Origin: a virus
Lineage: Duplodnaviria > Caudoviricetes
Strand: one strand, 5' to 3'
DNA: 53,059 nt
Virus record (IMG/VR): IMGVR_UViG_3300042987_002152
Location: 1 to 53,059 of that record
The position numbers were made by a program, and so were the translations under genes. Under the pieces are notes generated by a model, which had not been told where the DNA came from, did no database searches, and worked only from the letters and a program-made list of their open reading frames with translations. Shown piece after piece: positions 3,815 through 53,059 of this stretch; the stretch's first letter is position 1; each line of letters begins with the position of its first letter.

Positions 3815-3829
3815 TACCTGGCTGTAAAT

Positions 3830-4624: not shown

Positions 4625-4631
4625 GATAATA

Positions 4632-4667
4632 TATTTATGCAACGATTTAAGAGATCGTGTATAAATA
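4632..4667. promoter_or_regulatory. back-to-back divergent late promoters
   Basis: TAAATA on minus (4637-4632) and TATAAATA on plus (4660-4667) between divergent genes. Confidence 0.6.
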
Positions 4668-4680
4668 AAGCAACGGCTGC

Positions 4681-4716
4681 TTGCTATCCAGAGATGAAAA
4701 GTACCCGGCTCTCCGT
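4681..4716 (-). mobile_element. degenerate IS605 left-end-like copy G / hairpin
   Basis: Minus strand CCCGGCTACGGAGAGCCGGGTACTTTTCATCTCTGGATAGC resembles copy A; strong hairpin, but no TTAY target. Confidence 0.35.
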
Positions 4717-19351: not shown

Positions 19352-19519
19352 CTGGGCAACCCCTGATTGATACGATCAAATGATGCCCTTGGAGTTGACA
19401 GTTGTAGGTCATTGCATGAGTTAACCAAGCCCAGCCGGCATCTGCCATGCACAGGGTGGCGGGGTTAATTGCCGCTATCCATCCAAGGGCTCTAGCACCC
19501 TGGCTTTCTGTGGCAGAAT
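19323..19519 (-). mobile_element. IS605-derived mini-element, copy C
   Basis: TTAT|ATTCTGCCACAGAAAGCCAGGG...CCCTTGGATGGATAGCGG left end; ends TAGTTCAC at 19323. Confidence 0.6.
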
Positions 19520-19564
19520 ATAACACTTGATCTTATCTGATTATTCAAAGTAAATAATGGTATA

Positions 19565-26300: not shown

Positions 26301-29300
26301 TGGAACTATAGCAGTTGTGTGGACAAGCAGCAGCAACCAGTACCAGGACATTGGCGCGGGATTTATTTTTGGTTTTTTGATACTGATCAACCCCATCTGG
26401 CACCCTGGGAAATGTTGGGATTCAGTCAACAGCCCATGTGGTGGACACAAGAATATGGTGCAGCACCTTATACAAGTGGCAACCTTCGTATGTGGAGAGA
26501 TCTTGAACAAGGAATCATACTACACGGACCCAGAGCTGGTGTACACACTGTGTGGGCCAGACCAGGGTTGTTGGATAATATTCCTGTAGATACTAGCGGT
26601 AATTTGTTGCCTCCATTTTTGGCTGGAGTAGTCACCAGTCTGCCCACTACAGTTCTGGCAAGTGCGGATTGGAAATTTGGAGATCGTAGCCCATTGGAGA
26701 ATGTTTGGTTAACCCAAGTAACTTGTGATACTTTATGGGCGCAATGGACATATCTTGCCAAACCAGCACAATTCATGGAATATAATTGGGATGGAACAAG
26801 ACAGGAACAAATCCTTGCACAACAACCAGGATCGCAGTGGATCTACACTGACATATTGGACAGAAAAAGCAGCAGTGAATTTTTGGTTCATAGAGAAAAT
26901 CCACAAGATGTTGTCAGTTTACCCAACCCCTTGGACTTGGATTATTATGGTAGTTGTGGCATCCAGCATTGGATTAGTGAATATCTCATAAATGACAGCA
27001 AAGATGTTACTGTGTATTTTGGCAATATAATAAGAGGTATGAATGTAAATCTAGCCTATCGTTTGGGCGGGTTTACTGACAGCCAAAGTACTCGCATTTT
27101 TGTGGAGAGTTTTGGTATCAACAACAATAATAGCCTGTTGATTCCGCAAGAAGATGTGAGTACTGAATTGTTGCGCAGTGCCAGCACAGGTGAATATGTT
27201 TACACTGGTGTAATAGTGGAATTTCAAGGTATTGGTGTGGGTTGGAGAGTGATTGGTTATGACCAACTAAATCCATTTTTCAAAATAGTAGCAAGTGACA
27301 CCAAAGGTCCCAAAAACACTGTTGTGATTGATAATCAGCGAGTTTTTGAATACAGTAGGGGATTGGCACATACACAATTGGTAAGGTATGGTACAGTATT
27401 TGCCACACGACAGGAAGTTTATGATTTCCTCATAAGCTTGGGTAGAGCACAACAGATGGATGGTTGGTTGTTTGATCAATACGACGATGTAGCGGGTAGA
27501 CCTCGTAATTGGAGTTTGAGTGCTAGAGAATTTTTGTTTTGGAGTCAAGGACCTTGGGCAAGTGGCACATACATAGCTCTCAGTCCATTGGCTACATTAG
27601 CCAAATTTGAAAAAGATTATGGCGTAATACAAAATGTGGGCGGATTGGTTAATGGCGCATATAGTATACAAGATCGTAGCGGTGTTGCTATTCAACTACA
27701 AGACGTTGATTTTTTGCGTATTGACAATAAGATCAGTGTCCGGCCACTCAACAGTCAAGGTATTTTTGGATTAAGGTTGTATACTACAACCTTAGAACAT
27801 GCTTTGATAGTGGCTAACAGAACAATTTTCAATGACCTTATGTATGATCCTGTGTTGAACCAAAGACAATATCGTGTGAAATTTTATGGATATCGCACGT
27901 TGGATTGGAATGGAAGAATGAATGCTCCTGGGTATTTGGTCACACAAAGTTTACAGCAGATCAACAACACTGTTAATGTGATCAACAGAATCATACCCAA
28001 TTTTGAAAAAAGTGTAGAAGATTTGCGTAAACTTTTCGAAATAGATTTGGCTACCCCCTATCAGTTGGCAGACAATAATCAAACACTTACTAGCACAATC
28101 ACACAAAGCCTTCCCATCAATTTAAGTGTCATGGCCAAAAATGTAGTAGGTTATACACCTAGATCCTATCTCACACAGTTGTTGACTGATCAAAATATTG
28201 CTTTTCAGTTTTATCAGGGCATGATCAAACAAAAGGGTACTAGACCCAGCATAGACAAATTGTTACGCAATAATCAAATATTAGCCAGTGATCAAAACTT
28301 CGAATATTATGAAGAATGGGCATTTAGGTCAGCGGTTTATGGAAACAATTTGGACAATAGTAGTATAAGCATACTTCTAGACAATACATTAGTCAACAGC
28401 AATCCTCAATTGTTTATGATATCTGGACCTGGCACAAGCGATCTACCCAATGATGATGTATATACTATCTTGACAAATGGCAACAATGTTGTGCAAAAGA
28501 GCAACAAATTGGGTAATTTCAAATTACGTAATTATTATGGTTCAAACAGCAATGACCTACCCACTGCTGGATATGTGTTGTTGGACGAGACAACCTATAC
28601 TGTTGTGTCAGATCAAGACTTGCAGAACTTGTATTCAGAAACTACAAGTAAATGGATCAACAATCAAATAAGCAGGAATATTCAAGCAGGTGACACTGTA
28701 TGGCAGTTGATCAACAGTCAAACCACATGGAATGTTTATAAAATTTGTCAACCCACATGGAGTATTAGTGCAACCACTCCCAGTGATATTGATATATCTA
28801 TCACACAAGTGTCCACAACCAGTGCTCACAATCTTGTGTCTGGGGATCGAGTAATTTTGTATGGTGTTATCAATGCAGGCACAGTAATTGACAATACTTT
28901 TGTAGTAAATGTGATTGATCAACTGACCTTTGAAATCCAATTGACTACATCCAACATTGGTAGTGGAGGCACAGCCCTTGTATATCAAAGTATAAGATTT
29001 GCCAACACACAACAACGGGATGATGCATTGATTGCTGGAGGTTGGCAAACCAAGGACCTTGCTTATGTGGATGGTACCAGCCTGGATCCTTGGAAAGTAT
29101 ATTCATACACGGGTACAAATTGGCGTGTGCTGCGAGAAGAAAACTACAAAGTGGATCCCGAATATGTGGAAGCCAGCTTTTTGTATGACATTGTCACTGG
29201 TGTTACACAAACGCAATGTGTGTTGCTGGATCCAGTCAAAAATAAATTGCCAGGAATTTTTGATCAACAAATTGGTTTTCGCACACCTTATGATCCTGCT

Positions 29301-32300
29301 CAATACACACATGATCCCAGTCAAACAGTGGGTACCAATGCCCTGGATGCTTGGGGTAACGATCAAGTGGGTATGGTTTGGTGGGATCTGAGTAAATTAC
29401 GATTTGTGGATTATGAAATCCATACTGCAAGTTATAGACGACAAAATTGGGGCAAGGTGGCACCAGGAACCAGTGTTGATATTTACGAATGGACCAGAAG
29501 CACTGTGCCTCCGCAAGATTGGCAAGATCTAGTCAAAAGTGGCAAGGATTTGAGTGCCATTGGTACCACACAAATGCCCAGTGGTCAGGCCAAAGATCCT
29601 CAAGGTGCTTATGTGTTGGCGCAGCAGTTGAATAGTTTGAATCAGTTGCAAGATGTATTTTATTTTTGGGTAAAGAATACAACAACTGTTCCTGATGTCA
29701 GTTGGCGTACATTAAGCACCAGTGTGCTGGCAGACATAATACAAAATCCACAAAACACAGGCCAAAGTTGGTGGAGCCCAGCCAGTGCCGATCATGCATT
29801 GTTGGGAAATGTGGGCAATCTGTTGATCAACAATCAGAGTGTTTGGCAATTGAATTGGTTGGCCAATCAACAAACTCCTGTGGTGCACAAAGAGTACCAG
29901 CTTGTTCGACCCATGGACGCTCTCAGCAGTCCCACAAGTCAACTGTGGAATCATTTGAGATACAGTTTGGTAGAATATAATCAGTTCAATGATAGTGTGC
30001 CTTATTTGCGATTGCCTTTGAGTCAAAGATATGGGATTCAAAATCACCCACCACAAACCATTTTTGCAAACACCTTGAGCGCAAGACAGGCATTTGTAGA
30101 ACAAGTGAACACATTGCTAGCCAACAGCTCACAACCCAGTGTGAGTGACCCCAGCAGAGTGGGTTGGCAGCCGTTTTTTGATCTTCAAGAGCCCATACCA
30201 CCACAAAAGATTGTGCTGGCCAGTTGTGTGCGTGGCACTACAGAAAATCTTGATGCGTGGTATACCAATAGCAATGAGGGTATAGGTGCCCAATTAATAG
30301 GCAAGAATACACAGTTGTTGATTGTGGATCAACTGTATGTTCAGGTAGGTGATAGATTGTTGATCAAAAATCAAAAAGAGCCACAGCAGAACGGAATTTA
30401 TACAGTAATTCATCCAGGAACTCTAGTGTATGATGGGGTCTGGCCTACTGGAAATGGCAGAGTGAGTTTCACGGTGGGATCAACAACTTATTTGCCCAGT
30501 CAAGGTCAATACATTTTGAAGCAGAACACATTATATGTTATCACTGATATTGGCTCAGCTACCACAGAATGGCAGAGACAGGAAATTGCTGGCAATGTGC
30601 TCAACGACCCCAAACTCACCAATTGGGTTTTGGAACGAGCAAGTGATTTTGATCATTCCAGCAAACAGATCATAAACACTGAGGTATCAGTGTTATCTGG
30701 CAGTCAGACACACATATACTCTTGCCAACCATCAGGTGTATATGCACAAGATATTCAATTGATTGATGGTGGGCAAGGTTACAACGTGAATGACCTTATT
30801 ACCATTACCCAGGTAACCAGTTATACGCCTGTAAAAATCCTTGTTACTAGTGTTTCCAGCACTGCTATAACGGGGTTTGAAATACTGGACAGAGGAAATA
30901 TTCGAACTGTGAGTGCTGGGCGAATATGTAATACTACCTGGTATCCAGATGCATACAATAGTGGTATAAATGCTAGATTTAGTGTTCTCTGGAGTGGAAA
31001 CAAAGGTTTTGCAGTTGGTACATCAGTCATTAGTTTTCTACCTAAACCAGCGCTTACAACCTGGGATCAACAGGTGGAAAATTTAGCACAATTGCTGGAA
31101 CTCAGAAACAAAGTAGTTCCTGGAACTAGGGTCTTGGTTGCATATACCAATCTAGAAGGCGTGATCAGTGCAGGCAATGATACACAAAACAGATGGACCA
31201 TTTGGTTATGGCCCAATGTGTCAGCGCAAGATTTTGTTTTGATAAGAGTAGAAAGTTATGTGGGTAGTTTGGTGTGGGGATTGCAAGATTGGTATGCTGC
31301 TGGGTATAGTTCACAAACCATTCCTGATTTGGTTTTTGAAACTCTGCAAGATAGAGATCAATACAAGAACTTCTCCAAATTAGATATTGTTAGAGTCAAC
31401 AATACAGGATCTGGTCTCTGGAGCTTGTATTTGTATGTGGCAGTAGACTTCACACCTTGGCTGCTTGTGGGTCAACAAGATGGTACTGTGGTGCTGGAAG
31501 ACACATTGTATGATTACAGCAAATATGGCATGGGATTTGATGGCAGCGGATTCAACCAAGACTATCAAGGTTGGGAATACGACAGTCGTCAAGAATTAGA
31601 TCATATCATACAAGGATTGTGGCCCACAGCGGAAGGCACACAAGGATTATTGTTGATAGACAATCAGACAAATGAAGCCAACACATTGTGGTTTACCATG
31701 CTCAATAGAGTATTTAATGAACAAACTTTTGTGGATTGGGCATTCAAAACCAGTCACATTAATTTACAGGGATTTAGTACTCAGCTGACAGCTAGCCCGT
31801 TTTTCCAGCCAAGTACGTTGGACAACATACTGCAATACGTAAATGAAGTCAAACCCTATCATGTGAAAATTCGGCAATTGGTGGAATGGAAAAAAGCACA
31901 AGACAATTATGATAGTTCAAGCACAGACTTTGACAAACCACCCTATGTTGATCCTGTACAAGGCACAAGAATCTTGAATGTGCAGAGTGCCATTGATCAA
32001 GTTATTTTGCAAAACAATGCAGCTTACAAGAATTGGTACAGCAATTATGTGACCAATCCGCAAGTGGTGAGAACAATCAAAACTCGGTTAGTGTTTGATA
32101 GAGTAAGTTGTCAAGCTGCGGAATGGTACAATCAAGAAATTGATCCAGTAGAGCTGTATGCCTTTTTAAATCAGCCCACTGATCAATTCATCACTAGTTT
32201 GCGTGAATGGCTTGCAGTATTGTATGATACACAAATTATTGTGGGTTACAAGGTACAAGTGAAAATATTCAGTGAGATTATCATCCGTAGAAACAATCAA

Positions 32301-35300
32301 ACGAGTGTTGATCCATTGGAAAATTGGGATTTTATAGCTGCAGGGTTGGATTTCACTCAAATTTATGGATTGGATCCAGTACAAGCATTATCTAGAACTT
32401 TGCAAGAAGCACAAAGTATCTACACAGCACAAGATCTTTTTGTGTTGCTGAATAACAGTGCAAATTATTCTACTGGCTATCAAGCAAAAGTCAGGATAGA
32501 CGAGTGGATAACCACCAACACATATGTCAAACAAAATAACACAAGTATTTTGTTGGACCAATGGTTGTTGATAAGCTATGAGGCAGATAATGGAGCTGTG
32601 GATCGAGTGATTGCCTATTACAATCCTCAGGGAACACAATTACCTACCAACAGTCCATTGTTGATAAGTGGCTGTCAAGGTCAACTGTTGGGGGTTGATG
32701 GCCAAGGTTTCAACACCCAAGATACTTGGGACAAAACTGATTGGGACAATGTGCGAGGTTGGGACTATACTGAACAAAGTTTGGATCTTGTGGATCAAAA
32801 CATATCAGACGGGCTTAGTCCCAGATATTGGATTTTTGTAGGGGATGGTACAACTACTACATTTAGTCTGCCCGTGGCACCACAAAATCCCAACCAACTA
32901 ACCGTGTGGGTGAATGGCATAATCATTGCACAGTCAGGCAATTGGCATGTGCCCAATTGGGTCAGTCAAATTTATGTGCAGAATGGTGGTATCAATTATA
33001 GTATGAGTGATATTGTAAGCATTCAGGGAGGTACCTATACTAGGCCAGCACTGTTTGAGGTAACTGGTGTCTCAGTGTTGGGCACTATCACCAATTTGCA
33101 GATTGTGGATCCTGGAGAATATACAGTTGTGCCGCAAAATGGTGCTGTTCAGGTGAACGGAGGCACAGGTGTAAATGCTGCTGTGAGTGTGTTATGGGGA
33201 GGCACCAGCCTGGTGTTTGCCAGCGCTCCCAGCATCCCCTTACGTCCACGACCCAATGTATGGGTAGTAGAAAAAGGCAGCACATTCAATCCACAAGTAG
33301 AAAGCATGTTAAATATGACTTTTGATGGTGCTGGTTTGAACAGCCCACATCTGCAACCGGGACATCCAGAAGAACTGAATAAATCCTGGAACAGAGACAG
33401 TTTGATCATGGACGTTTACAATCAAGCTCAACCTGGTTATGGTAATTTGATTACCAAAGTTTACACATCAGATGGTTTGATCGACCAATTTGACATAGGA
33501 CAACCCATTGTCAGCAACAATCAATTGTTTGTTTATGTGAATGGTCAGCCACAAATTTATGGTGTATCAAATGATTATGTGATTGCCTATGATACTATGC
33601 GAGTAGTATTTTTAGTGCCTCCTCCAGCAGGAAGATTGAGTATTGTGAGTGTGGGGTTTGGTGGTGCAAGTCAAGGATTGGGCTATTGGAGTATTACCAA
33701 TGCTGGTACCAACTACAAAATTGGTGATAAAATCCAGTTACTGGGGGGCACACCTTATGACCCTTCAGTTACAGCAACCATGATTGTTAGTGCACTTAAG
33801 GCAGTGGGCACACAAATTATACAAGGCGGTCAAGATTATCAAATTGGAGATCTGCTGGAACTCAAATATGGCACCAGTAATGGAATTATGATTGTGCAAG
33901 TGAATGCTGTCACCAATAGTTTGGCAGTCAAAGGTATCATCAGTGGTGTGACTGTGATCAATGCAGGGTTTTATTACAGCGTCCCAGCCAGCAATTTTTG
34001 GTACACATCAGGCACAGGCACTGGGGCTAATATCAATCCCCTTTGGGGAGTTGCTGACATATATGCTGATCCCACTGTGGGATTTTTGGGCATTTATCAG
34101 AGCATTCCTGCTCAAGCCACCCAAGCAAGTGTTACTCCACCAGGTGGCACAGGATTTACATTACAATGGGGGCCCAGTAACATAAGGCAGCAAATTACCA
34201 AAACCTATAATGGCAGCAATGCCAGCTTGAAATTTAATTTGCCTATTGTCAATGCACAATTCTTGTTATTGATCAATGGTGCAGCTAGTGTGGGTTATAC
34301 TTTGGATCCCACTGATCCTACAAATGTGCTTGTTAGTGTTCCATTGGTTGTGGGAGACACTCTTGCGGGTATAGTGTTCAATAGCACACTGTACAGTTTT
34401 ATCAACACACAGACTATTGTTGTACCCAATCCTGCTGTGTTGAATTATACAATTACGTTGCCGCCGTTCTTGAGCGTGATGCAAAGTCAAAACGCTCTAG
34501 TATTTATCAATGGATACAAGCTCCGGCCGCCATATTTTTGGCAAGGCACTGGTGATGGAACAACCACAATTTTTGATGTGGGAGTAGCCACAGGTGCTAG
34601 TGTTTTGAATGCATGGGTCAATATCACTAGTATTACTAGTACTGCCATCATTGCAGGACCAGGCGCAAATCAAGTCACATTTGCCTCTGCACCGCCCCCA
34701 GGCAGCAAATTATTTGTTCAAGTGCAGTTGAATAATGAGTTTGTGATTCAATCTACTAATTTGACTTTGATTAACCCTCCCTCTTCAGGTGATATTATAA
34801 CCGTTCAAACATTCAGTGAAGACAGTATCACCAGTTGGCGTAGCGACCGATTCCCAGGACATATGCCTGCTGTGTATACATTGAGCACGCTGGCCAGCAG
34901 TTATGGTAGTGTGCAAGTGTTTGTGAATGGGTTGTTGGTTGACCAAAATTGGGATTACACAGTGCTGTTTCAAAACAATCAAACCTTAATTCAGTTTGCT
35001 GACAATGTCACACACCTGCCCGCAGACACTGTGGAAATATATTATCCTACCCAGCCTCCAGCAGTGCCCAGTGTGGCATTTAGAATGTTCACAAACATTT
35101 ATTCAGATACTCAATATCTGAGGCTGAGTGACCAGCACACAACCAGATTGGCTGAGAATTTCTTTCACACCAATACCACAATGTGGGTGGAAGATGGATC
35201 AGTATTGCCGGATGCAACCAATAGTAACCCAGGTGTCATCTGGATTGGAAGTGAACGTATTTTGTATGCAAATAAAGTGGCTGATCCCAGTGTGCAATTG

Positions 35301-35813
35301 CCTCAGCGAACTAGATTGGAGCAAATCACTCGAGGATCCATAGCTACAAGTGGGGGAATTCCTACAAGATTTTTGAGTGAATTTCACAATGGTGATAATC
35401 AAAGCATATACTTTGCCACCCAACTACCGGTAGTCAATTTATTTGTGTTTGTGGATGGTATTCCACAAACTTTGAATTCCAATTACCAAATTGTACAGGA
35501 CCCTCCAGGTGTTGTGTCAGGAACATACATTAAATTTTCTAACGTCAGAAATGTGGATGGTGAAATTTTGTATGCAGAGGATGGTACAAGCATGCCACCC
35601 CCAGTGGGTAATAAAAACATTGTATTTGTAAGTAATTACAACAATTTCCTGCCTGCGAATTTGGTTTATGCCCAGGGCAGTGTTGTGAGAGATGGAAGTG
35701 CCAGGCAAAATATACCGGCAGGGTATATTTGGACTCCTGGAACCAGCCTGCAATATAGTGCAGAACCACAAACTCCTTTCTTGGTTCAACAACCTGGCAC
35801 ACGAATAGTTTAG
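23313..35813 (+). CDS. giant (4166 aa) baseplate/virion structural protein
   Basis: Uninterrupted ORF coupled to gp6; KQKGT and EVKPYHVKIR motifs of gp7-position proteins; beta-rich C-terminal repeats. Confidence 0.8.
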   Translation: MTQKPRRISEFLPEVLQTDLLQKFFAATGDQLFQPSNVEYLSAFVGEKPPYYKPTSEQYVAEINKNRRDYQLSPTAVSRDIISNEVTHTLFYDDLINKLRFQGGLVDDHNRLFENEYYSWGAPLNWDKFVNYSNYVWLPQGPTTIELLSPTNAQVDVISNISYAYVGNYSYPDPQDPELLVIKSATVNNPLVFVNGMKIKFLVDADVQSRSISWIVEGVGTSIRLVSDNILTYLAWENPVDYDTTPWDSNSLQDSPTYVVMGRGSANANPWSLQNRWFHKRVLELTQTALPDSVSSSAQRPILEFDYDLKLFNFGTRHRGFITLLDTQSQFLDQINGQWVTTIDNSNGNRTYLQIDQLTLDDDQIILFTNLRNPERNNKLYRVTNVRNSSSISGAQTKLGQVVLELLPNQIDPLGDPQPGDAVTIMQGGTWQNTCWWYNPVTRSWQQAQNRTLPTNVDPTSSAYKSALNSSPLFDLFNTRQEYLANPAVYPANNFAGCTIFEYARSSQGVIDPVLGFIPVVENAGARNFVFNNTLCSQQWIYKNNNALETVPGLKFYQHQSDHNVSYGNNWFVSSQPSRQYVVNEFVSKLDQQTFVIDQAPALQESAHDPQLLTNAVGGAMPITVSVGTKTLVLNQDYTVQGNAVFLFEPLLADQFVRIRSFAVPNNQATNGYFEIPSNLAANPNNQAILNISFGNLLPHLQTIIDNQQNLSVFADVSVTTNYDNLAQDQSLGTVIIQSRAPMLKLMGMNAIEQTTVFDTTSSVLDPITAIQWAQAEYLRFYNKFVNTLMYLYNNQGNLKDQTAGGWLDQALAIINVGKTRSSSWANSGFDIQAGSYCSQKSQTPTWIPASATRLGLTPAWEPLVFFDTSQPNMPLSMRTHNGALVVLKDYNNENLGTILNNQQQTNIPDALSNPVAQAWLLFEKLLYDNLPASYKNKERQLPVDPRTIFSGKYRQTNYSRTDQLKIQSAQWQSWLTLNQVEAFKNTTFDVTDPFTWNYSSCVDKQQQPVPGHWRGIYFWFFDTDQPHLAPWEMLGFSQQPMWWTQEYGAAPYTSGNLRMWRDLEQGIILHGPRAGVHTVWARPGLLDNIPVDTSGNLLPPFLAGVVTSLPTTVLASADWKFGDRSPLENVWLTQVTCDTLWAQWTYLAKPAQFMEYNWDGTRQEQILAQQPGSQWIYTDILDRKSSSEFLVHRENPQDVVSLPNPLDLDYYGSCGIQHWISEYLINDSKDVTVYFGNIIRGMNVNLAYRLGGFTDSQSTRIFVESFGINNNNSLLIPQEDVSTELLRSASTGEYVYTGVIVEFQGIGVGWRVIGYDQLNPFFKIVASDTKGPKNTVVIDNQRVFEYSRGLAHTQLVRYGTVFATRQEVYDFLISLGRAQQMDGWLFDQYDDVAGRPRNWSLSAREFLFWSQGPWASGTYIALSPLATLAKFEKDYGVIQNVGGLVNGAYSIQDRSGVAIQLQDVDFLRIDNKISVRPLNSQGIFGLRLYTTTLEHALIVANRTIFNDLMYDPVLNQRQYRVKFYGYRTLDWNGRMNAPGYLVTQSLQQINNTVNVINRIIPNFEKSVEDLRKLFEIDLATPYQLADNNQTLTSTITQSLPINLSVMAKNVVGYTPRSYLTQLLTDQNIAFQFYQGMIKQKGTRPSIDKLLRNNQILASDQNFEYYEEWAFRSAVYGNNLDNSSISILLDNTLVNSNPQLFMISGPGTSDLPNDDVYTILTNGNNVVQKSNKLGNFKLRNYYGSNSNDLPTAGYVLLDETTYTVVSDQDLQNLYSETTSKWINNQISRNIQAGDTVWQLINSQTTWNVYKICQPTWSISATTPSDIDISITQVSTTSAHNLVSGDRVILYGVINAGTVIDNTFVVNVIDQLTFEIQLTTSNIGSGGTALVYQSIRFANTQQRDDALIAGGWQTKDLAYVDGTSLDPWKVYSYTGTNWRVLREENYKVDPEYVEASFLYDIVTGVTQTQCVLLDPVKNKLPGIFDQQIGFRTPYDPAQYTHDPSQTVGTNALDAWGNDQVGMVWWDLSKLRFVDYEIHTASYRRQNWGKVAPGTSVDIYEWTRSTVPPQDWQDLVKSGKDLSAIGTTQMPSGQAKDPQGAYVLAQQLNSLNQLQDVFYFWVKNTTTVPDVSWRTLSTSVLADIIQNPQNTGQSWWSPASADHALLGNVGNLLINNQSVWQLNWLANQQTPVVHKEYQLVRPMDALSSPTSQLWNHLRYSLVEYNQFNDSVPYLRLPLSQRYGIQNHPPQTIFANTLSARQAFVEQVNTLLANSSQPSVSDPSRVGWQPFFDLQEPIPPQKIVLASCVRGTTENLDAWYTNSNEGIGAQLIGKNTQLLIVDQLYVQVGDRLLIKNQKEPQQNGIYTVIHPGTLVYDGVWPTGNGRVSFTVGSTTYLPSQGQYILKQNTLYVITDIGSATTEWQRQEIAGNVLNDPKLTNWVLERASDFDHSSKQIINTEVSVLSGSQTHIYSCQPSGVYAQDIQLIDGGQGYNVNDLITITQVTSYTPVKILVTSVSSTAITGFEILDRGNIRTVSAGRICNTTWYPDAYNSGINARFSVLWSGNKGFAVGTSVISFLPKPALTTWDQQVENLAQLLELRNKVVPGTRVLVAYTNLEGVISAGNDTQNRWTIWLWPNVSAQDFVLIRVESYVGSLVWGLQDWYAAGYSSQTIPDLVFETLQDRDQYKNFSKLDIVRVNNTGSGLWSLYLYVAVDFTPWLLVGQQDGTVVLEDTLYDYSKYGMGFDGSGFNQDYQGWEYDSRQELDHIIQGLWPTAEGTQGLLLIDNQTNEANTLWFTMLNRVFNEQTFVDWAFKTSHINLQGFSTQLTASPFFQPSTLDNILQYVNEVKPYHVKIRQLVEWKKAQDNYDSSSTDFDKPPYVDPVQGTRILNVQSAIDQVILQNNAAYKNWYSNYVTNPQVVRTIKTRLVFDRVSCQAAEWYNQEIDPVELYAFLNQPTDQFITSLREWLAVLYDTQIIVGYKVQVKIFSEIIIRRNNQTSVDPLENWDFIAAGLDFTQIYGLDPVQALSRTLQEAQSIYTAQDLFVLLNNSANYSTGYQAKVRIDEWITTNTYVKQNNTSILLDQWLLISYEADNGAVDRVIAYYNPQGTQLPTNSPLLISGCQGQLLGVDGQGFNTQDTWDKTDWDNVRGWDYTEQSLDLVDQNISDGLSPRYWIFVGDGTTTTFSLPVAPQNPNQLTVWVNGIIIAQSGNWHVPNWVSQIYVQNGGINYSMSDIVSIQGGTYTRPALFEVTGVSVLGTITNLQIVDPGEYTVVPQNGAVQVNGGTGVNAAVSVLWGGTSLVFASAPSIPLRPRPNVWVVEKGSTFNPQVESMLNMTFDGAGLNSPHLQPGHPEELNKSWNRDSLIMDVYNQAQPGYGNLITKVYTSDGLIDQFDIGQPIVSNNQLFVYVNGQPQIYGVSNDYVIAYDTMRVVFLVPPPAGRLSIVSVGFGGASQGLGYWSITNAGTNYKIGDKIQLLGGTPYDPSVTATMIVSALKAVGTQIIQGGQDYQIGDLLELKYGTSNGIMIVQVNAVTNSLAVKGIISGVTVINAGFYYSVPASNFWYTSGTGTGANINPLWGVADIYADPTVGFLGIYQSIPAQATQASVTPPGGTGFTLQWGPSNIRQQITKTYNGSNASLKFNLPIVNAQFLLLINGAASVGYTLDPTDPTNVLVSVPLVVGDTLAGIVFNSTLYSFINTQTIVVPNPAVLNYTITLPPFLSVMQSQNALVFINGYKLRPPYFWQGTGDGTTTIFDVGVATGASVLNAWVNITSITSTAIIAGPGANQVTFASAPPPGSKLFVQVQLNNEFVIQSTNLTLINPPSSGDIITVQTFSEDSITSWRSDRFPGHMPAVYTLSTLASSYGSVQVFVNGLLVDQNWDYTVLFQNNQTLIQFADNVTHLPADTVEIYYPTQPPAVPSVAFRMFTNIYSDTQYLRLSDQHTTRLAENFFHTNTTMWVEDGSVLPDATNSNPGVIWIGSERILYANKVADPSVQLPQRTRLEQITRGSIATSGGIPTRFLSEFHNGDNQSIYFATQLPVVNLFVFVDGIPQTLNSNYQIVQDPPGVVSGTYIKFSNVRNVDGEILYAEDGTSMPPPVGNKNIVFVSNYNNFLPANLVYAQGSVVRDGSARQNIPAGYIWTPGTSLQYSAEPQTPFLVQQPGTRIV

Positions 35814-45739: not shown

Positions 45740-45943
45740 CTACCAACCTTGTAGCAGATCCCATACACTGTGACACACATATGACAACATGCCCAATTGA
45801 GTGACAAAACTGATGCCAAAAAAGGCACTACTGCTCCAAATACATCCACTCCAGGACAGGACCCAATCGGCCACCATAGCACTAATCAAAAACATAGCAA
45901 AAACAGTTACACAAATTGTAGCATATTTGAGCATGCTTTTCAT
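45740..45943 (-). CDS. small membrane protein
   Basis: Two hydrophobic segments; TAAATA at 45977-45972. Confidence 0.6.
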   Translation of the reverse strand: MKSMLKYATICVTVFAMFLISAMVADWVLSWSGCIWSSSAFFGISFVTQLGMLSYVCHSVWDLLQGW

Positions 45944-45978
45944 TAACTATCCTTTTATCCTGTGTGTGGTTTATTTAT

Positions 45979-46084
45979 CTCCCGTTGCGGAAAACCAGGT
46001 GCCTTTGCGCACTGGATGGATAGCGGCAATTAGTTTTTCGCTGCGCAAGCCTGTTGTGGATAGAGCCCAACAGATACTTTAACT
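45979..46084 (+). mobile_element. IS605 left-end-derived remnant, copy D
   Basis: TTAT|CTCCCGTTGCGGAAAACCAGGTGC...GCACTGGATGGATAGCGGCAATTA; no right end visible before copy E. Confidence 0.6.
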
Positions 46085-46190
46085 GTGAACTACTATTGGT
46101 CTAAACACCAACAGCCTCCTGCTTGATCGTAGTGGCTGACATCAGACCCCAATGAGTGAGAATATCTGTGACCACATCCACAGGCGCAGG
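46065..46190 (-). ncRNA. putative TnpB omega-RNA (reRNA) scaffold plus flanking guide
   Basis: GCCTGTGGA (46185-46177), CGATCAAGCAGG (46129-46118), right-end hairpin and TTCAC; the guide would be the flank 46084-46065. Confidence 0.5.
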
Positions 46191-46323
46191 GGGCAGTTTC
46201 TGCTGTGGAGTTTGATAGGTCCTATATTTGTATTAAATAATATGGCAACTAGATTATATCAATATTTATACCACTCGCTATCCATCCACTGGCTTTCAAG
46301 CCAGTGGTCTTCCGCTCGAAATA
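46085..46323 (-). mobile_element. non-autonomous IS605/IS1341 element with both ends, copy E
   Basis: TTAT target, left-end hairpin, TATAAATA (46270-46263), tnpB remnant YKYRTYQTPQQ (46232-46200), right end CAGGAGG-CTGTTGGT-GTTTAG-ACCAATAG-TAGTTCAC. Confidence 0.75.
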
Positions 46324-46334
46324 ATAAATATGCT

Positions 46335-46721
46335 ATGCACTGGTTGATTGCCTTTTTTCTGCTGATTGCTTGGAGTAGACCTGTTCAATTGGAACACACT
46401 GAAACTCCTAGTTATCATTCACTATCTGCCTTGGCTACGTGTCTTAGTGTCATAGAGGTACAAATATCATTCACAGCCCATCGCATAGAACTTGCTCCAC
46501 ACATTATTGTTTGGGCAAACACCTTGGACCTTTATAATAATATGATCAAAGAGATCTATAGTGAAAGTGCACAACATGTGATTGTAGAAGAATATCAATC
46601 TATGAAAAAAGATTTGATAATAGCTCTCATGCATTATGACCAGGATCAGGTGCTGGAACTTGTGCAAAATTTTGTTTTGATTAGAGAACAATGCATATAC
46701 CTGGTCAGCTACTCCTCTTGA
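46335..46721 (+). CDS. hypothetical protein with N-terminal hydrophobic signal
   Basis: Start MHWLIAFFLLIAW 4 nt after TAAATA; the upstream part of the track ORF is element E. Confidence 0.6.
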   Translation: MHWLIAFFLLIAWSRPVQLEHTETPSYHSLSALATCLSVIEVQISFTAHRIELAPHIIVWANTLDLYNNMIKEIYSESAQHVIVEEYQSMKKDLIIALMHYDQDQVLELVQNFVLIREQCIYLVSYSS

Positions 46722-46860
46722 ACAACCACATGCACTAGATGCCCAACAAAGCAGATAATTGGCAACTTGTGCATGGGAGGATAAACATGATCAAGAACAG
46801 CCATCTGTGAGATTAGGCAGGACTCCTCTGTGAGAAATATGTAGGCACATAACTACTGGG

Positions 46861-47949
46861 TTAGCTCCCAAAACCCATGCGAAATTTTTGGACAGGTAGT
46901 TCTTGAGGATTCTGAAACAGTTGTGCCAAGCTCCAAGAATTTTGCGCCCGCCAATCACGGTCTGGCAAACCTGCTGCTAGTGCTGCCTGTTCAGCTTCTG
47001 CACTGGTGAGTTCTCGAAACTCAACGCTGGCAAAACACCGACCAGGACGCAGTAGAGCAGCATCAATCTTGCTTACCTGAGTGATGTTGCTTGTGAAAAT
47101 CATTTTTTTGTTGATGATTTTGATCAAGCCATCGCTCACATTCAAAAACTTGCTCATCATTTCGTTGTCACCATCTTCCCTGGGAGCCAAAAACACATCT
47201 GCATCCTCCACAATCAAGGCATTATGTTCCTCATCAGTGAGATAGTTGATGAAGAACTCATCATCCTTGAGGATGCGATCATCGTAAGTAACCATTGCAC
47301 TGATGTTATGACTCACCAGCATGTGCCTGAGGAAGCTGGTTTTGCCAGTACCTGGGGGACCATACAACACCAACACACTGGCACTGGATGAATAAAAGTC
47401 ATTGACAAACTGATCCACTCCTTGTTTGAACCATGGATAAAATTCATTGTGCAACTTCTGGCCCAGACCTGTCACGTGCATACTTGCACAATCATTACCA
47501 CGGCCGGTTTTGTAATACCAGCTGATTTTGACCAGTTTCTTACCGTGCAGGCGTTCTTGTAGATTTTCTCTTAGGCGAGTTACTTGCTCTTCTGCACCGT
47601 AAATTTCAAGTACAAAAGTAACAATATTATTGCGGCTGTAGCGATATCCGTTGTCATAACACATCACCAACAGGTTGTCTTGTGCATCAGTCACATAGAA
47701 CTCACGCCTATGAAAAAAATTAGCCTTGATATTAGTGTAGAACTGCTTAAACGTTTCTTTGACTGCATGGAACATTTGCAGTTCAGTTTCTTTGCAGTCA
47801 ATCTCAAACCGTGCCACAATAACTTCCGGAACCTTGCATTTGTTCCAAAATTCATTGATCACGCTACAACTGAGAGCATCACTGTGCCCTTCAGTGTAGA
47901 AAAAGCTTTCCAGCATGGGAGGACGATACATTCTATTACCCTTTAACAT
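46861..47949 (-). CDS. AAA+ ATPase
   Basis: GPPGTGKT, IVEDAD and DAALLRPGR. Confidence 0.9.
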   Translation of the reverse strand: MLKGNRMYRPPMLESFFYTEGHSDALSCSVINEFWNKCKVPEVIVARFEIDCKETELQMFHAVKETFKQFYTNIKANFFHRREFYVTDAQDNLLVMCYDNGYRYSRNNIVTFVLEIYGAEEQVTRLRENLQERLHGKKLVKISWYYKTGRGNDCASMHVTGLGQKLHNEFYPWFKQGVDQFVNDFYSSSASVLVLYGPPGTGKTSFLRHMLVSHNISAMVTYDDRILKDDEFFINYLTDEEHNALIVEDADVFLAPREDGDNEMMSKFLNVSDGLIKIINKKMIFTSNITQVSKIDAALLRPGRCFASVEFRELTSAEAEQAALAAGLPDRDWRAQNSWSLAQLFQNPQELPVQKFRMGFGS

Positions 47950-47994
47950 TATTTTATTCAGTTTATTGAAGAAATTCCATCCGTCAACATTTGT

Positions 47995-48339
47995 TTAGGG
48001 TTCATGGTTCTCCTGATCATATTCCCAAGCTGTGAGACTGACCACAGTCATGTAATTAGTCCATGCTTCTCTTATGCCAGGAAATCTTTTTTGGAGTTCA
48101 TCATGTTTGTAAGCTGCGTGCAGCTGATGCAAGATTGTTTGGAAGTCAGTTTCACTTATTGTGATGTCATACAACTGCTCTGTTTTCACCATTGGTATTG
48201 TGATGTCATACAACTGCTCTGTTTTCACCATTGGTGGTAAGGTAGATTCGTGCAAGCTTACCAGTTGTTGATAGCCTTTTACACTTGCGTTGAACTCCTG
48301 TGTAAACCAATCCAACTCTCGAGAATAAATTTGTGCCAT
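47995..48339 (-). CDS. hypothetical protein with 13-aa duplication
   Basis: 114-aa ORF in a tightly packed minus-strand run. Confidence 0.65.
   Translation of the reverse strand: MAQIYSRELDWFTQEFNASVKGYQQLVSLHESTLPPMVKTEQLYDITIPMVKTEQLYDITISETDFQTILHQLHAAYKHDELQKRFPGIREAWTNYMTVVSLTAWEYDQENHEP
48157..48235 (+). repeat. exact 39-bp tandem duplication
   Basis: tattgtgatgtcatacaactgctctgttttcaccattgg x2 (PMVKTEQLYDITI x2). Confidence 0.95.
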
Positions 48340-48342
48340 ATG

Positions 48343-48612
48343 TTAGCTCCATGTCAAAAGGAAATTCACTGCGTGTGAGTAGTTTCTAAACCAAAATTCT
48401 TGATAAACATTTGTGCAAATCACACCTGTGCTCCAATTGTGAATAGGATCAGGTTCACCAGCAATTTTGTGACAATATTCAATCAAATGTGGATCATGCA
48501 CTGTGTTGGTAGTTGGCAACCTCACGATATGATATGTGATCCCAGCACAGTCAAAGTCATAAAAACATTCGCTCCTCAAAAAAGTATCCTTGCGGGTCAT
48601 ATGTGTTGACAC
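48343..48612 (-). CDS. small hypothetical protein (F-x-F...F-x-L-T-W family)
   Basis: Ends FWFRNYSHAVNFLLTWS. Confidence 0.65.
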   Translation of the reverse strand: MSTHMTRKDTFLRSECFYDFDCAGITYHIVRLPTTNTVHDPHLIEYCHKIAGEPDPIHNWSTGVICTNVYQEFWFRNYSHAVNFLLTWS

Positions 48613-48630
48613 TTGATCAATCTGTGGGGA

Positions 48631-49038
48631 TCAAACAGACCTCATGTGGACACCATTGTAGAACTGATAGCCAAAAACCAAATTAAATTGAACTTGAGTC
48701 AGTTGATCCCAAGGCCATCTAATACCCAATTTGTTCATCCATTCATCCACATCTTGTGTAATATCAACATCCCATATATACCAACGGGGTTTGCCGTTTG
48801 CTGGTATGATTGCTGGACCATCCATTCTATGCCTTTGCCCTTGACAATACCATTGTGTCAGTTGCTCAGGCCCATCATATAAAATCACCACATGTGATTT
48901 GTGCAATGGATAATCTTGATACCCTTGATCAGATTTTGCTTGAGATAATCTGTTTGGGTCCTGCACATCCTGCTTGACCCATAATTCTATTCCTGTATTT
49001 GGATCAATAATTTGTCTGTAGCAATCACTCATTGGCAT
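48631..49038 (-). CDS. hypothetical protein with HRxDGPA repeat unit
   Basis: WYCQGQRHRMDGPAII...WY. Confidence 0.65.
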   Translation of the reverse strand: MPMSDCYRQIIDPNTGIELWVKQDVQDPNRLSQAKSDQGYQDYPLHKSHVVILYDGPEQLTQWYCQGQRHRMDGPAIIPANGKPRWYIWDVDITQDVDEWMNKLGIRWPWDQLTQVQFNLVFGYQFYNGVHMRSV

Positions 49039-49067
49039 GCTAGTTTAGCAGATAGTCAGACTAATGT

Positions 49068-49322
49068 CTATATGCTCTCAAGGTTATGGGAAAAGGTTCC
49101 ACCCCAAGTCAAATGGAACATGATAGCATCTTTGTGAAATTGAAACATAAACCGCCTGCTATAACATCTGACAAGGCCCACATAGATTGGACCTGCATAA
49201 TATGTGGCTCCTCGGGTGTTAGGCCAACACTGATAACACCAAGTATACGCCTGTTCCAAACGGAGGCTGTCTGGTGAATGCAATACCACAATATATTCAA
49301 GCTTAGCCACGTTGCTGTTCAC
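49068..49322 (-). CDS. small hypothetical protein (F-x-F...F-x-L-T-W family)
   Basis: FMFQFHKDAIMFHLTWG. Confidence 0.6.
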   Translation of the reverse strand: MNSNVAKLEYIVVLHSPDSLRLEQAYTWCYQCWPNTRGATYYAGPIYVGLVRCYSRRFMFQFHKDAIMFHLTWGGTFSHNLESI

Positions 49323-49545
49323 ACCCCTGGCATATCCATGCTATGTCCACATTGGGGGCACTTCCAAACGTCTTCAAGTGTGACAATGTGACAGTTTCGT
49401 TATTGATCAAATGTCCTCCTGGATCACTCAGAGCATGTTTAAGATAGTCTGGAATAGTTGGACCAATGGCAATGCCCTGGTTCATAGCCACATGGCATCG
49501 GTAGCAAGTGGGGATCAATTTATGGTTCACCTTATCAAATCTCAT
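49303..49545 (-). CDS. small Cys-containing hypothetical protein
   Basis: CYRC and CQGC pairs; overlaps both neighbours. Confidence 0.5.
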   Translation of the reverse strand: MRFDKVNHKLIPTCYRCHVAMNQGIAIGPTIPDYLKHALSDPGGHLINNETVTLSHLKTFGSAPNVDIAWICQGCEQQRG

Positions 49546-49825
49546 GTGAAGTCTGAGTGATTAGACGTGCTGCAACCTGCTCTGCCATATGAACATACCA
49601 TGGCCAGCCATCAATATTCTCAAAATACCAGTCACTAGTAGAGGTAGGCAACGGCACAGCACAGGGCTCTAATCCTCGATATTCATTATAGCCCCACACG
49701 ATAGGGCCGTATATTGCATCTGTGAGGATCTTGCAACATACCATGGTGGGAAAGCAAGCCACGGCATAGACACACCACAACGGTTTGCCCACGATCCCAG
49801 GATCATTTGGATCAACCAACATCAC
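49535..49825 (-). CDS. small hypothetical protein
   Basis: Coupled to the ligase stop; AGGAG RBS. Confidence 0.55.
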   Translation of the reverse strand: MMLVDPNDPGIVGKPLWCVYAVACFPTMVCCKILTDAIYGPIVWGYNEYRGLEPCAVPLPTSTSDWYFENIDGWPWYVHMAEQVAARLITQTSHEI

Positions 49826-51024
49826 TCATTCTCCTGTGATTCATCCTTGTATTTCAGGCCACCCCATAGATATCGAACGGAATCAACTCTGGTTTGGGTG
49901 CCCAGATTCTTGCGGATCAGCTCTAGCACTGCCGTTGGGAAATCAAATTCACTATTATCCCAGGCCTGAAAAATCATTCCCCTGAGGCTGGAATCCATGG
50001 TGGGAGCCCATTCAATAGCAAACTTCTTGCGATCAGTACCAAACAAGCTTTTGGCATCCATATAAACCAGCTGCCACTTGCCAATGGTGTCCTGCACACC
50101 CTGCCAAAAATCCCGTTCATAGGTTTCCACACGAGTGAGATCTTCTCTGGGCAAATAGCTCTTGATGTCGTCCAGCTTTTGGTCCAAGATCATCTCAATC
50201 AAGCCCTTTTCATGGATCAGATTATCCTTGGCTCGATGGATCCTCACATAAGAATCAGCCTTGAGCTTGACCATGTGTCCATCATGCCAGCGGATAATAC
50301 AGCCTTCCTGATCTTCCAGTGCCCGTGTGTCATTCACCAGTTGCTGCATGCTTTCCACAGTTCCTGCATATGCTCGCACCAAATCCAAGCCATACTCACC
50401 AGCCAGCTCTTGCATCTGCTGATAGGTGAGATATTCACCAGTCAACACATGGCGAACTGCAATCAGCACCAGCCTGTCCTCAGGATAGTCTATCACAATC
50501 CGTTGCTGACGACTACACCATTCAAATATGGGCGTATATCCAGCGCCAATCGCACCTAGGATGAACGTATTGATGTTGGGTTTGTTGGCCACGTATGTCT
50601 CAGCTTGTTGTGCCACATCTGTGATTCCCATTCGGGTGCCCAACCGATAGGTGCCACCTGTGGTGGGAATGGGACGAATCATACTTCCATCCATTTTATC
50701 TAATATGATATGGGGTTTGCTGAGATCAATGTTCTCCAACAAAGTCTCCCGTCGTTCTCCTGCATTCCAAAATTTATGCAGGGGGCGAGACACCAATTCT
50801 CCCTGTTTGTTAAAGCACAATCCTCTGCATTCTCGGCGAATTGCATGATGCATTGCCAGCTCAGGCCCATCCTGGCTGAGTACTTCCGGAAACATATCAG
50901 GACCCATCTGCACATAGTTCACCACAGTGCCCCAGTCACGCTGGGCAACAATAAATCCCTCCACTCCCTGGATGGCAGCCAGCACTTGATCAATGTGGGT
51001 GATTTCAGGAAACTTATAGTGCAT
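49822..51024 (-). CDS. T4 Rnl1-like RNA ligase
   Basis: RECRGLCF, RPLHKFWN, KMDGS, EGCII and MVKLKADSY; start MHYKF at 51024. Confidence 0.9.
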   Translation of the reverse strand: MHYKFPEITHIDQVLAAIQGVEGFIVAQRDWGTVVNYVQMGPDMFPEVLSQDGPELAMHHAIRRECRGLCFNKQGELVSRPLHKFWNAGERRETLLENIDLSKPHIILDKMDGSMIRPIPTTGGTYRLGTRMGITDVAQQAETYVANKPNINTFILGAIGAGYTPIFEWCSRQQRIVIDYPEDRLVLIAVRHVLTGEYLTYQQMQELAGEYGLDLVRAYAGTVESMQQLVNDTRALEDQEGCIIRWHDGHMVKLKADSYVRIHRAKDNLIHEKGLIEMILDQKLDDIKSYLPREDLTRVETYERDFWQGVQDTIGKWQLVYMDAKSLFGTDRKKFAIEWAPTMDSSLRGMIFQAWDNSEFDFPTAVLELIRKNLGTQTRVDSVRYLWGGLKYKDESQENE

Positions 51025-51047
51025 GATCAATCCCTTATGATTGCTAT

Positions 51048-51075
51048 AATATAGCACACTCTTGGATCATGTCAA
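51048..51075 (-). promoter_or_regulatory. sigma70-type early promoter
   Basis: TTGACA-N16-TATATT with TGC before the -10, same geometry as 16786 and 17602. Confidence 0.65.
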
Positions 51076-51299
51076 TCAGTCGTTGTCATCAAATCCATTG
51101 GCAGGTCTCTCTGGGACAGGTACCAATCCCATTGATCCTTGCCTATAGATATGAGGATTTTTTCTTGTCTACAAGGATGTTCATGTACCTGGTCTTTCAG
51201 CACATCCAGAAGATCTTAAAATCACTGCTGGATCGTGGCATCTGACATGACCTATATGGGCATGTCCACAAGCCGATGACCTGTGGTTCCACACATGAA

Positions 51300-52841
51300 T
51301 TATTTTCTTGCCTTCTTGCCTCTACCCAATGCCTGCACATCTGGCACCCTGGGATCCCGCTTGTCACGTGCGTTTTTGCTAACGATCCTACCCACCTGTT
51401 TGTCCCGTATGGCCTTCTCAGCCTGATGTGGGGTCTTGAAACTGTCACCAGTCAGCTTGTCTACAATTTGGCCATCTTTGGTCATTTCAAATCTTTCATC
51501 ACCAGCCAATTCCTTGAGCAGTTTGCCCATTTCAACCAAATTTCTGAATATGGGTTTGCCTGAAGGGTTTTCCACCTTGAGTCGGGCCTTGACAAGCACA
51601 TTATCGGGGTTGTCTTTTTCATGTACAATAATGGTGGGCGTGGCCAGTGCAGTGGCTGATGTCCGGATGCTGGCTGCCAGATCCAGTTGATCCAGTTTCT
51701 CTTCCAAATTGTCAAAGTTGATTTGATCATAGCCTGCAATGGTGGGTGCATTCTTGAGTGCAATTAAAACTACATCCTTGTCTGAACCTCTTGCAAAATG
51801 TTGTATGCCTCTGGCCAAATCCGTCACCCAGTGAGCTTCTGTGGTGTTGTTGGATGTCTTCAATTTACGATTTAGTTCATCTTTGACCCACAAATATGCT
51901 TTGCTGGCAGCTTGTACAGGTTGTCCACTGTCCCATTCCTTTTGGATGCTGGCAGGCAGTGTGACGCCAAACAGGGCATGCATGAATTCTTTGACAGTTG
52001 CAAAGCTTGTGCCATATCTCTGGCCAAACTGTGCAACATCTGCTGCCTTGAGGCTGATATTCAGTTTCACAGGCTTGCCGTCAATTTTCACTCTCACATC
52101 CACTTTGGTGCCTGTTTGTTCACTCAAACCGTCACTTGTGATTTCCACATGATTGGCTTGGGGATCATTCAGAATGTGGTCAATCTGTTCTTGCATCTGT
52201 TTGTTCTTGTTTGCAAACAGTTGGGCGCTTTTTAATGCACCAATATAGCCTGACCTATCTTCACTCATTAGTGCATCCATGGTGATCTTGTCCAGTTTGA
52301 TCTCCAGTTTGATTTTGTTGCCCTGCTCAGTGGTGTTATATGTGGCTCTTGCAATAGGAGCCTTCTTGCCCTGTTGAATATATTCCAGTTTGCCGCCTTG
52401 CCTGTTGTTCTTGATGTTGTTGAGAATCTTAACAATATCTTGTTCTGTGACTAATTTGTTGGTCACAAAGCGAGCTGTAATAGCCACCCCCAATAAACCT
52501 TCTGCCAAATTACCCACATTAAATCCCTTGACTCCTGCGCCTCCTCCGAATTCCTTGGTTTTTTTGAGGTTACCAATTGCCATGCTTTGCCCATCCAGGG
52601 TTCGCACTATGATCTTGGAAAATTTCTCCCCAGCCAACAGTCTGTCAAATGTATCTTTCAGTTGATCATGACTGTGAGGATCTATCAAAACCTGTTCGCC
52701 TGTGCGTTCCACTGTGAAGGGGAGTTGTTCCTTGACCATGTTCAGAAATTTCTGTATTCGCCAAGGACGCCGTATGAGGGCACTAGCATCCAAACCAGAT
52801 TCTGTGATGGATGGATGGGGTCTAAGTTGGTAGATTCGCAT
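51300..52841 (-). CDS. probable virion-packaged protein with PD-(D/E)xK-like nuclease motif
   Basis: Leader MRIYQLRPHPSITE; GNLAEG...KVDV...ISLK; TAAATA at 52866-52861. Confidence 0.6.
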   Translation of the reverse strand: MRIYQLRPHPSITESGLDASALIRRPWRIQKFLNMVKEQLPFTVERTGEQVLIDPHSHDQLKDTFDRLLAGEKFSKIIVRTLDGQSMAIGNLKKTKEFGGGAGVKGFNVGNLAEGLLGVAITARFVTNKLVTEQDIVKILNNIKNNRQGGKLEYIQQGKKAPIARATYNTTEQGNKIKLEIKLDKITMDALMSEDRSGYIGALKSAQLFANKNKQMQEQIDHILNDPQANHVEITSDGLSEQTGTKVDVRVKIDGKPVKLNISLKAADVAQFGQRYGTSFATVKEFMHALFGVTLPASIQKEWDSGQPVQAASKAYLWVKDELNRKLKTSNNTTEAHWVTDLARGIQHFARGSDKDVVLIALKNAPTIAGYDQINFDNLEEKLDQLDLAASIRTSATALATPTIIVHEKDNPDNVLVKARLKVENPSGKPIFRNLVEMGKLLKELAGDERFEMTKDGQIVDKLTGDSFKTPHQAEKAIRDKQVGRIVSKNARDKRDPRVPDVQALGRGKKARK

Positions 52842-52867
52842 GTGATCATCTCTTTTGGCATATTTAT

Positions 52868-52946
52868 TATTTCGAGAGGAAGTCCACTGGCTTTCAAGCC
52901 AGTGAATGGATAGCAAGTGGTATAAATATTGATATAATCTAGTTGC
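52868..52946 (+). mobile_element. IS605 left-end copy F with internal late promoter
   Basis: 52858-52946 matches the reverse complement of 46245-46333 at 83/89 nt; TATAAATA at 52921-52928. Confidence 0.7.
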
Positions 52947-53059
52947 GTCATAGTTATTGAGATCATATATTTCCATAACTGATCTTATATTTTTTTAACA
53001 GAGGGACTATATGCTCCTCTGTTGCGGATATTGATAGCGCCATTCAAGTCAGCATCTAT

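Follow-up and report, generated by a model that had tools for sequence, protein, structure and literature searches.

A gene-less IS200/IS605-type mini element with an omega-RNA-like scaffold and a late-promoter-like motif in a freshwater jumbo phage

Results

A 239-bp tnpB-derived element in a phage genome fragment

The window analyzed here, a stretch of 53,059 nucleotides, is the entire IMG/VR record IMGVR_UViG_3300042987_002152, whose completeness is rated at ≈12%. It encodes baseplate, tail-fibre, and virion proteins; among named phages, the closest matches to these proteins come from jumbo myophages such as Atu_ph07 and members of the Rak2/GAP32 group (≈38 to 40% identity). A gene for a gp55-like late sigma factor lies at 337-1248, and a single 4166-residue ORF at 23313-35813 sits within the tail/baseplate block. 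The same or a near-identical phage is present in 20 public runs from 10 studies, and the labels of these runs are nearly all freshwater, lake, reservoir, aquaculture, or sediment metagenomes; there are no RNA runs among the public matches to window 52300-53059.

The minus strand from 46323 to 46085 holds a 239-bp element, referred to here as c46 (Table 1), that derives from an IS200/IS605-family tnpB element by internal deletion and is non-autonomous and PATE-like. The original prediction had drawn the element on this strand with exactly these boundaries and this length. The TTAT target it named (46327-46324) is part of a longer TTTAT, the left-end hairpin is perfect as described, and the perfect copy of TATAAATA that it reported turns out to be a conserved left-end feature of a larger family. 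The two ends of c46 bear subterminal hairpins of unrelated sequence without terminal inverted repeats, and its flanks carry no direct target duplication. Its left-end architecture is that of the LE2 left ends found in full-length elements. Downstream of c46, also on the minus strand, lie a 67-aa ORF at 45943, a metallophosphatase gene, and an HNH gene.

The interior of c46 consists only of tnpB residues 5 to 16 and 365 to 397 and is too short to encode TnpB. Approximately 12 N-terminal codons are joined in frame to the last 33 codons of the gene, and the junction falls within CAG(G/A)AAC, a sequence present at both parental sites. The element arose by deletion between two copies of the 7-nt microhomology CAGGAAC, with removal of tnpB codons ≈17 to 364. 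Both remnants are recovered by tblastn, in agreement with the predicted origin of the element by internal deletion. The predicted 5′ remnant, put at 29 of 33 identical nucleotides relative to another copy, is 86% identical over 37 nt to the copy c1 (1351-1387), a value consistent with that figure. For the 33 C-terminal codons, identity is 72.7% (E 2.7e-10 by tblastn with the window alone as the database). At the nucleotide level, the 3′ part of c46 is 88.9% identical over 90 nt to the right end of full-length elements (blastn E 2e-28) and 97% identical over 70 nt to another mini copy. Judged by these alignments, its likeness to full-length right ends is far beyond chance, and the claim that c46 retains the guide-RNA-coding right end is borne out by the match of its scaffold to the 3′ ends of full-length elements. 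The right-end hairpin is followed, as predicted, by the terminus TAGTTCAC at 46092-46085.

Table 1. Positions of c46 features and of the other element copies, in window coordinates
Feature	Positions	Strand	Basis or remark
c46: TTTAT target, putative transposon-adjacent motif	46328-46324	-	directly 5′ of left end
c46: left end, subtype LE1	46323-46245	-	repeated at 52858-52946 (93%) and 1267-1337 (94%)
c46: left-end perfect 8-bp hairpin, CCACTGGC-TTGAAA-GCCAGTGG	46307-46286	-	sequence
c46: TATAAATA, T4-type late-promoter-like motif within left end	46270-46263	-	motif scan
c46: former start-codon region, degenerate, in-frame TAA	46255-46233	-	start codon lost
c46: tnpB 5′ remnant, codons 5-16, reads YKYRTYQTPQQK	46232-46197	-	tblastn with full-length TnpB
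c46: tnpB 3′ remnant plus right end, omega-RNA-like scaffold (120 nt)	46204-46085	-	homology and consensus fold
c46: tnpB codons 365-397	46202-46104	-	tblastn; stop codon at 46103-46101
c46: right-end subterminal hairpin, beta type	46115-46092	-	fold; alpha/beta comparison
c46: right-end terminus AGTTCAC	46091-46085	-	common to all 11 real right-end copies
c46: predicted guide flank (20-mer)	46084-46065	-	position from ISDra2 rule (≈16 nt of flank)
Element B, truncated: TTTAT, LE2 left end (45979-46027), decayed interior	45974-46084	+	tail to tail with c46
Copy c1: TTTAT, LE1 (with TATCAATA), tnpB codons 2-26, then truncated	1267-1416	+	no right end
Copy c52: TTTAT, LE1 with TATAAATA, few decayed tnpB 5′ bases	52863-52975	+	repeat matches
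Deletion relic: LE2 left end joined directly to tnpB codons 273-302	19374-19523	-	upstream of baseplate operon
LE2 left end preceded by TTTAC	100-152	-	next on the same strand: TATAAATA (46-39) and an ORF that extends past the window edge

Other copies in the window and the neighborhood of c46

The window contains six left ends and a single right end, so c46 is its only complete unit. With the protein of the relative L038 as the tblastn query, the tnpB codons of c1 (1342-1416) are 84% identical and residues 273 to 302 of the deletion relic are located at 19463-19374. The 3′ end of another tnpB-like gene truncates copy c52. The left-end hairpins of c46 (46286-46307) and c52 (52883-52904) have identical stems and loops that are reverse complements of each other (TTGAAA and TTTCAA), which looks from the two sequences like a loop flip.

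Comparison of window 46334-52857 with the closest relative, L007, identified a 513-aa protein that is 80% identical between the two. In L007, the gene for this protein is inverted and lies exactly at the position that c46 occupies in the window, whereas in the window, it abuts c52; the element copies therefore mark rearrangement breakpoints. L007 itself carries neither elements of the c46 type nor a tnpB. In the same region of the window, an ORF at 47995-48339 (114 aa) contains a perfect 39-nt tandem duplication (48157-48234) that doubles 13 residues, and a contig from run X10 has only one copy of this repeat.

The edge of the window (52985-53059, minus strand) carries the 3′ end, comprising the last 24 codons, of a second and unrelated tnpB-like gene that runs off the window and matches phage proteins of ≈400 residues with a Cas12f1-like TNB domain. 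Members of this edge-gene family start with MIRTSKH and are found in Desulfovibrio phage 7757, the huge phage LR756500, and 20 IMG/VR loci. The family is multicopy in some contigs, has internal-deletion copies that keep both ends, and shows a conserved hairpin over its last codons; in run X1, a loose end at a depth ≈5 times that of the flanks continues the edge-gene frame with a zinc-ribbon motif. The edge gene, a point absent from the original prediction, belongs to a different family and is no partner for c46. We also considered whether the 89-nt left-end repeat, read on the opposite strand, could be the right end of this gene. Alignment of the left part of c46 with the edge-gene 3′ end scored 21, compared with 20.2 ± 3.7 for shuffles, 395 of 1000 of which scored as high. 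As the alignment is no better than that of shuffles, this reading was rejected; the repeat instead proved to be a left end belonging to another tnpB family.

Two further candidates were discarded. PeSL-type mobile regulatory cassettes of T4-type phages combine a stem-loop with a promoter repeat and have no transposon homology; a PeSL-like terminator-promoter cassette was ruled out here by the finding that the repeat in question, termed D3, is the left end of a tnpB element read backwards. A tRNA-like fragment was likewise dismissed after ARAGORN found nothing.

Assembly support for c46

In four public runs, no Logan contig bridges the whole of c46; the contigs end within the repeats, at 46146, 46167, 46274, and 46293, and several odd joints fall in this region. 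The depth over 46004-46255 is ≈5 to 14 times that of the flanks in the four runs, and the loose ends in this interval lead into alpha-type right ends and full-length tnpB continuing upstream in the same metagenomes. One could suppose that c46 is a false path through repeats and that a full-length element, or another junction, occupies the locus. The breaks and odd joints would fit such an artefact. The deletion junction specific to c46 is, however, covered without mismatches by a 108-nt contig in run X1 (46167-46274) and a 106-nt contig in run X3 (46169-46274). Their depths are at the single-copy level in both runs and resemble those of the flanks, at 17.5 against 17.7 and 16.1 in X1 and at 18.8 against ≈22 in X3, and all pieces agree with the order of the window. 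We therefore regard an assembly artefact as highly improbable. No precise-excision joint for c46 was found in the contigs of the four runs, a kind of assembly that drops rare forms.

Full-length and mini relatives in other phages

The sequence matching 46203-46114, at 82 to 97% identity, directly follows the RuvC and zinc-ribbon part of a complete tnpB in the phage loci L035, L038, and L039. These genes carry HTH_OrfB_IS605, OrfB_IS605, and Cas12f1-like TNB domains; a scan with the pattern of D3, a shorter repeat, had led to other phage contigs. With one mismatch allowed, a motif search recovered 11 real right-end copies in the window and these loci, and all of them end at AGTTCAC with unrelated sequence beyond. 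Of 20 family left ends, 16 are preceded by TTTAT, TTTAC, TTAC, or TTAT on our reading of the left-end listing.

The left ends fall into two subtypes, LE1 in c1, c46, c52, and L030 and LE2 in the rest, and the right-end hairpins into two types, with most copies having alpha and c46 and L030 having beta. Full-length tnpB genes (identities 72% and ≈37%) likewise bear a beta hairpin in L040 to L042 and L045 to L047. The most similar full-length arrangements, L038 (≈2940-4696, tnpA and tnpB) and L035 (≈560-1847, tnpB only), share the left-end architecture, 3′ scaffold, and AGTTCAC terminus of c46, but they have LE2 and alpha hairpins and encode proteins, whereas c46 combines LE1 with a beta hairpin. 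A full-length parent combining LE1 with a beta right end did not turn up in any of the collections searched. An LE1 stub joined to a beta right end occurs in another phage contig, L043; over its last 118 nt, this copy differs from c46 at six positions (≈95% identity). A Y1 tnpA lies directly upstream of a family tnpB in G005 (126.5 bits), a second TnpA match is in G003, and five phage fragments of 14 to 62 kb contain one to five TnpB zinc-ribbon matches each (E up to 0.001). The search for tnpB and tnpA with matching ends that was proposed with the original prediction was productive in other phage contigs and came up empty in the window, which represents ≈12% of the genome and has no cognate full-length tnpB or tnpA and no PF01797 match.

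Internal deletion has recurred in the family. Four further deletion copies with other junctions occur in L039, L031, L043, and a contig of run X10, and each retains at least ≈97 nt of the 3′ end. Since each junction sits at a microhomology, the retained 3′ blocks need no selection to explain them.

The exact LE1 pattern had no match in IMG/VR or metagenome contigs, and the phage GenBank collection contained no DNA match to c46. A GTDB scan with the scaffold pattern returned three matches, about the chance level by our estimate, and the scan of these genomes gave no host candidate. One of the three is at the 3′ end of a Nocardia tnpB of 35% identity (L049:222-286), where the two helix-2 motifs (described below) occur at the same spacing just after the gene, in a match that was selected by the pattern itself; this hints that helix 2 may be a widespread feature of this omega-RNA type. 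Three left ends (L030:4746, L031:11565, and L037:103) have no tnpB following them and instead share a sequence starting GTGATGTAGCAAGA with a GC-rich hairpin, possibly a different cargo or a structured RNA. Homologs of the window's 19565 gene and baseplate-hub gene flank a distant tnpB that has the same type of beta right end at L042:53-4840; in the window, this neighborhood carries the 19.4-kb relic. Overall, the c46-type family has colonized a group of freshwater jumbo phages.

The scaffold of c46 retains a conserved fold

By positional homology to full-length copies, the scaffold of c46 corresponds to the tnpB 3′ end plus the right end. RNAalifold was applied to nine related copies, comprising four full-length alpha copies, one full-length beta copy, and four minis, and the fold was derived from the same nine sequences on which it was then tested. 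The consensus has six helices and 33 pairs, with 94.7% of cells paired, and in eight of the 33 pairs both partners have changed in a compensatory manner. Covariation scores 0.255; shuffles give 0.162, with none of 500 attaining 0.255, and sliding the partners gives 0.02 to 0.09. Several pairs alternate among G-C, G-U, and A-U, a pattern that fits RNA. Much of the covariation is located in the terminal hairpin, where five of ≈9 to 10 pairs have compensatory changes between the alpha and beta types, and this hairpin may be one that TnpA needs or reads as DNA.

The 120-nt scaffold of c46 retains 30 of the 33 pairs, compared with 32 to 33 in full-length copies. The two motifs singled out in the original prediction, GCCTGTGGA and CGATCAAGCAGG, are both present and pair with one another as the two sides of the predicted helix 2 (46184-46180 with 46122-46118). 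The omega-RNA-like character of the scaffold is supported by this comparison within the family. Rfam 15, which may hold no model for this omega-RNA type, gave no match to it, whether the whole window was scanned at the gathering threshold or 45900-46420 at E up to 10. Near 52900, Rfam gave only chance-level matches of the snoRNA type. Folds of the single c46 sequence are not exceptional (z −1.6 to −2.2).

In ISDra2, according to the sections of the paper drawn on here, TnpB binds an RNA of ≈150 nt that comprises the 3′ end of tnpB, the element's right end, and a flanking stretch of ≈16 nt (PMC8612924). By analogy, the flank 3′ of AGTTCAC in c46 is predicted to serve as the guide. As c46 keeps 120 nt relative to an ISDra2 RNA of ≈150 nt that includes the guide, the 5′ part of its scaffold may be missing. 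The suggestion that related phages carry the guide target found no support: the predicted 20-mer has no match in IMG/VR, and the site is absent from L007.

These observations bear on the view that c46 is an inert relic, a decaying deletion product without usable RNA, TnpB binding, or mobilization, and conserved only because its origin is recent. Broken copies abound in the window, where copies are nested or placed tail to tail and left ends far outnumber right ends; c46 has lost its start codon; the predicted guide lacks an IMG/VR target; and with a microhomology bounding every retained 3′ block, the places where these deletions stop can be explained without selection. Against this, c46 keeps nearly all of the conserved pairs and both ends intact, the lineage it shares with L043 persists in another phage, and the family is multicopy with an autonomous member. 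We consider that c46 may be such a relic but find this view somewhat doubtful.

A late-promoter-like motif is a conserved part of the left end

The motif TATAAATA, which we take to be the T4-type late promoter consensus, occurs as four perfect copies in the window compared with 1.74 expected, and only one of the four is outside an element. Both features expected of T4-type late promoters, the motif and a gene for a gp55-type sigma factor, are present in the window. On our reading of the listing, nine of the family's 20 left ends contain a perfect copy of the motif and five more a copy with a single mismatch, and in those nine, its position is constant amid varied context. In L032, L034, and L035, the left end leads into TATAAATA, after which come five bases and the tnpB start codon; in tnpB-only relatives, just 5 nt separate the motif from the ATG, an unusual placement for a promoter.

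Such a motif could have been exapted for regulation, acting as a late promoter that drives the minus-strand genes downstream, with the scaffold fold being incidental. The element does point at that operon with no terminator-like site between them, and other copies also lie just upstream of genes, including c1 before the gene at 1526 and the 19.4-kb relic by the baseplate operon. The downstream genes, however, are nucleotide-metabolism types that are usually not late, L007 has the same operon without any such element, and element B intervenes between the promoter and the operon. A regulatory role of this kind thus seems to us decidedly unlikely.

Discussion

The closest precedents for c46 are gene-less derivatives of IS605-type elements in cellular genomes. 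The PATEs of Haloquadratum walsbyi arise, in the excerpted account, through repeat-mediated loss of the element core (PMC3119063). As far as that account extends, they resemble c46 in having no protein gene, near-terminal palindromes without inverted terminal repeats, no target duplication, and a nested arrangement among other copies (PMC3119063). Unlike these PATEs, c46 resides in a jumbo phage instead of an archaeal chromosome, carries a complete guide-RNA-like fold, and has a late-promoter motif in its left end, at least in comparison with the features given in that part of the source. The minimal ISGst elements of Geobacillus stearothermophilus are likewise gene-less members of the IS605 family, with bacterial hosts and other ends, and in the portion of the report used here, they are said to "often encode omega-RNAs" that need TnpB in trans, an inference of its authors (PMC10055086). 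That gene-less PATEs would supply omega-RNAs to TnpB made elsewhere is therefore an already published idea, and what is new is the phage setting and the conserved late-promoter motif. Full-text literature searches returned no description of gene-less IS605 minis from phages or of a late-promoter motif at the left ends of such minis, although such searches are no proof of absence. TnpB itself is known to be common in phages (PMC12607003), and one case is described from a cyanophage (10.64898/2026.02.14.705889).

The proposed target motif has counterparts as well. ISDra2 and IS608 insert 3′ of a short motif (TTGAT and TTAC, respectively) that doubles as the TAM, and TnpB cuts TAM-flanked matches, most prominently the joint left by excision, as set out in the available sections of PMC8612924. 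The c46 family resembles them, on the evidence of that partial text, in its insertion 3′ of a short motif, here TTTAY as a putative TAM, and c46 differs from ISDra2 in having no nuclease gene in cis.

These parallels suggest a mechanism in which a late transcript of c46 is loaded as an omega-RNA by TnpB in trans and the element is mobilized by TnpA in trans. Late in infection, transcription would start from TATAAATA in the left end, and the RNA would traverse the tnpB remnant and the right end into the flank. Only a TnpB encoded by a full-length copy, elsewhere in the same phage or in a co-infecting relative, could trim this transcript and bind it as an omega-RNA. The resulting complex would cut the TTTAT-plus-flank joint after excision, or the same site in an element-free genome, and such cutting would preserve or spread the element, whereas a Y1 TnpA acting in trans would move c46 itself. 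The benefit would most likely be selfish rather than a service to the phage. Taken as a whole, we give this mechanism about an even chance of being correct. A wider version, in which freshwater jumbo phages share a late-promoter IS605 family whose minis act as extra guide genes and whose TnpB cuts empty TTTAT-plus-flank sites in co-infecting relatives, is rather unlikely in our estimation. If cutting during co-infection does occur, it would amount to element homing and marker exclusion among competing phages, akin to the homing endonucleases of T4-like phages.

Regardless of how c46 functions, IS605/TnpB elements have multiplied in jumbo phage genomes instead of merely appearing in them, and small genome fragments hold autonomous, tnpB-only, and gene-less copies side by side and nested in one another. 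If c46 is not expressed, its locus is a well-resolved example of element decay by microhomology deletion. Should expression and loading in trans occur, the minis would represent naturally occurring stand-alone guide genes and would provide a direct test system for the part played by TnpB in competition of phage against phage.
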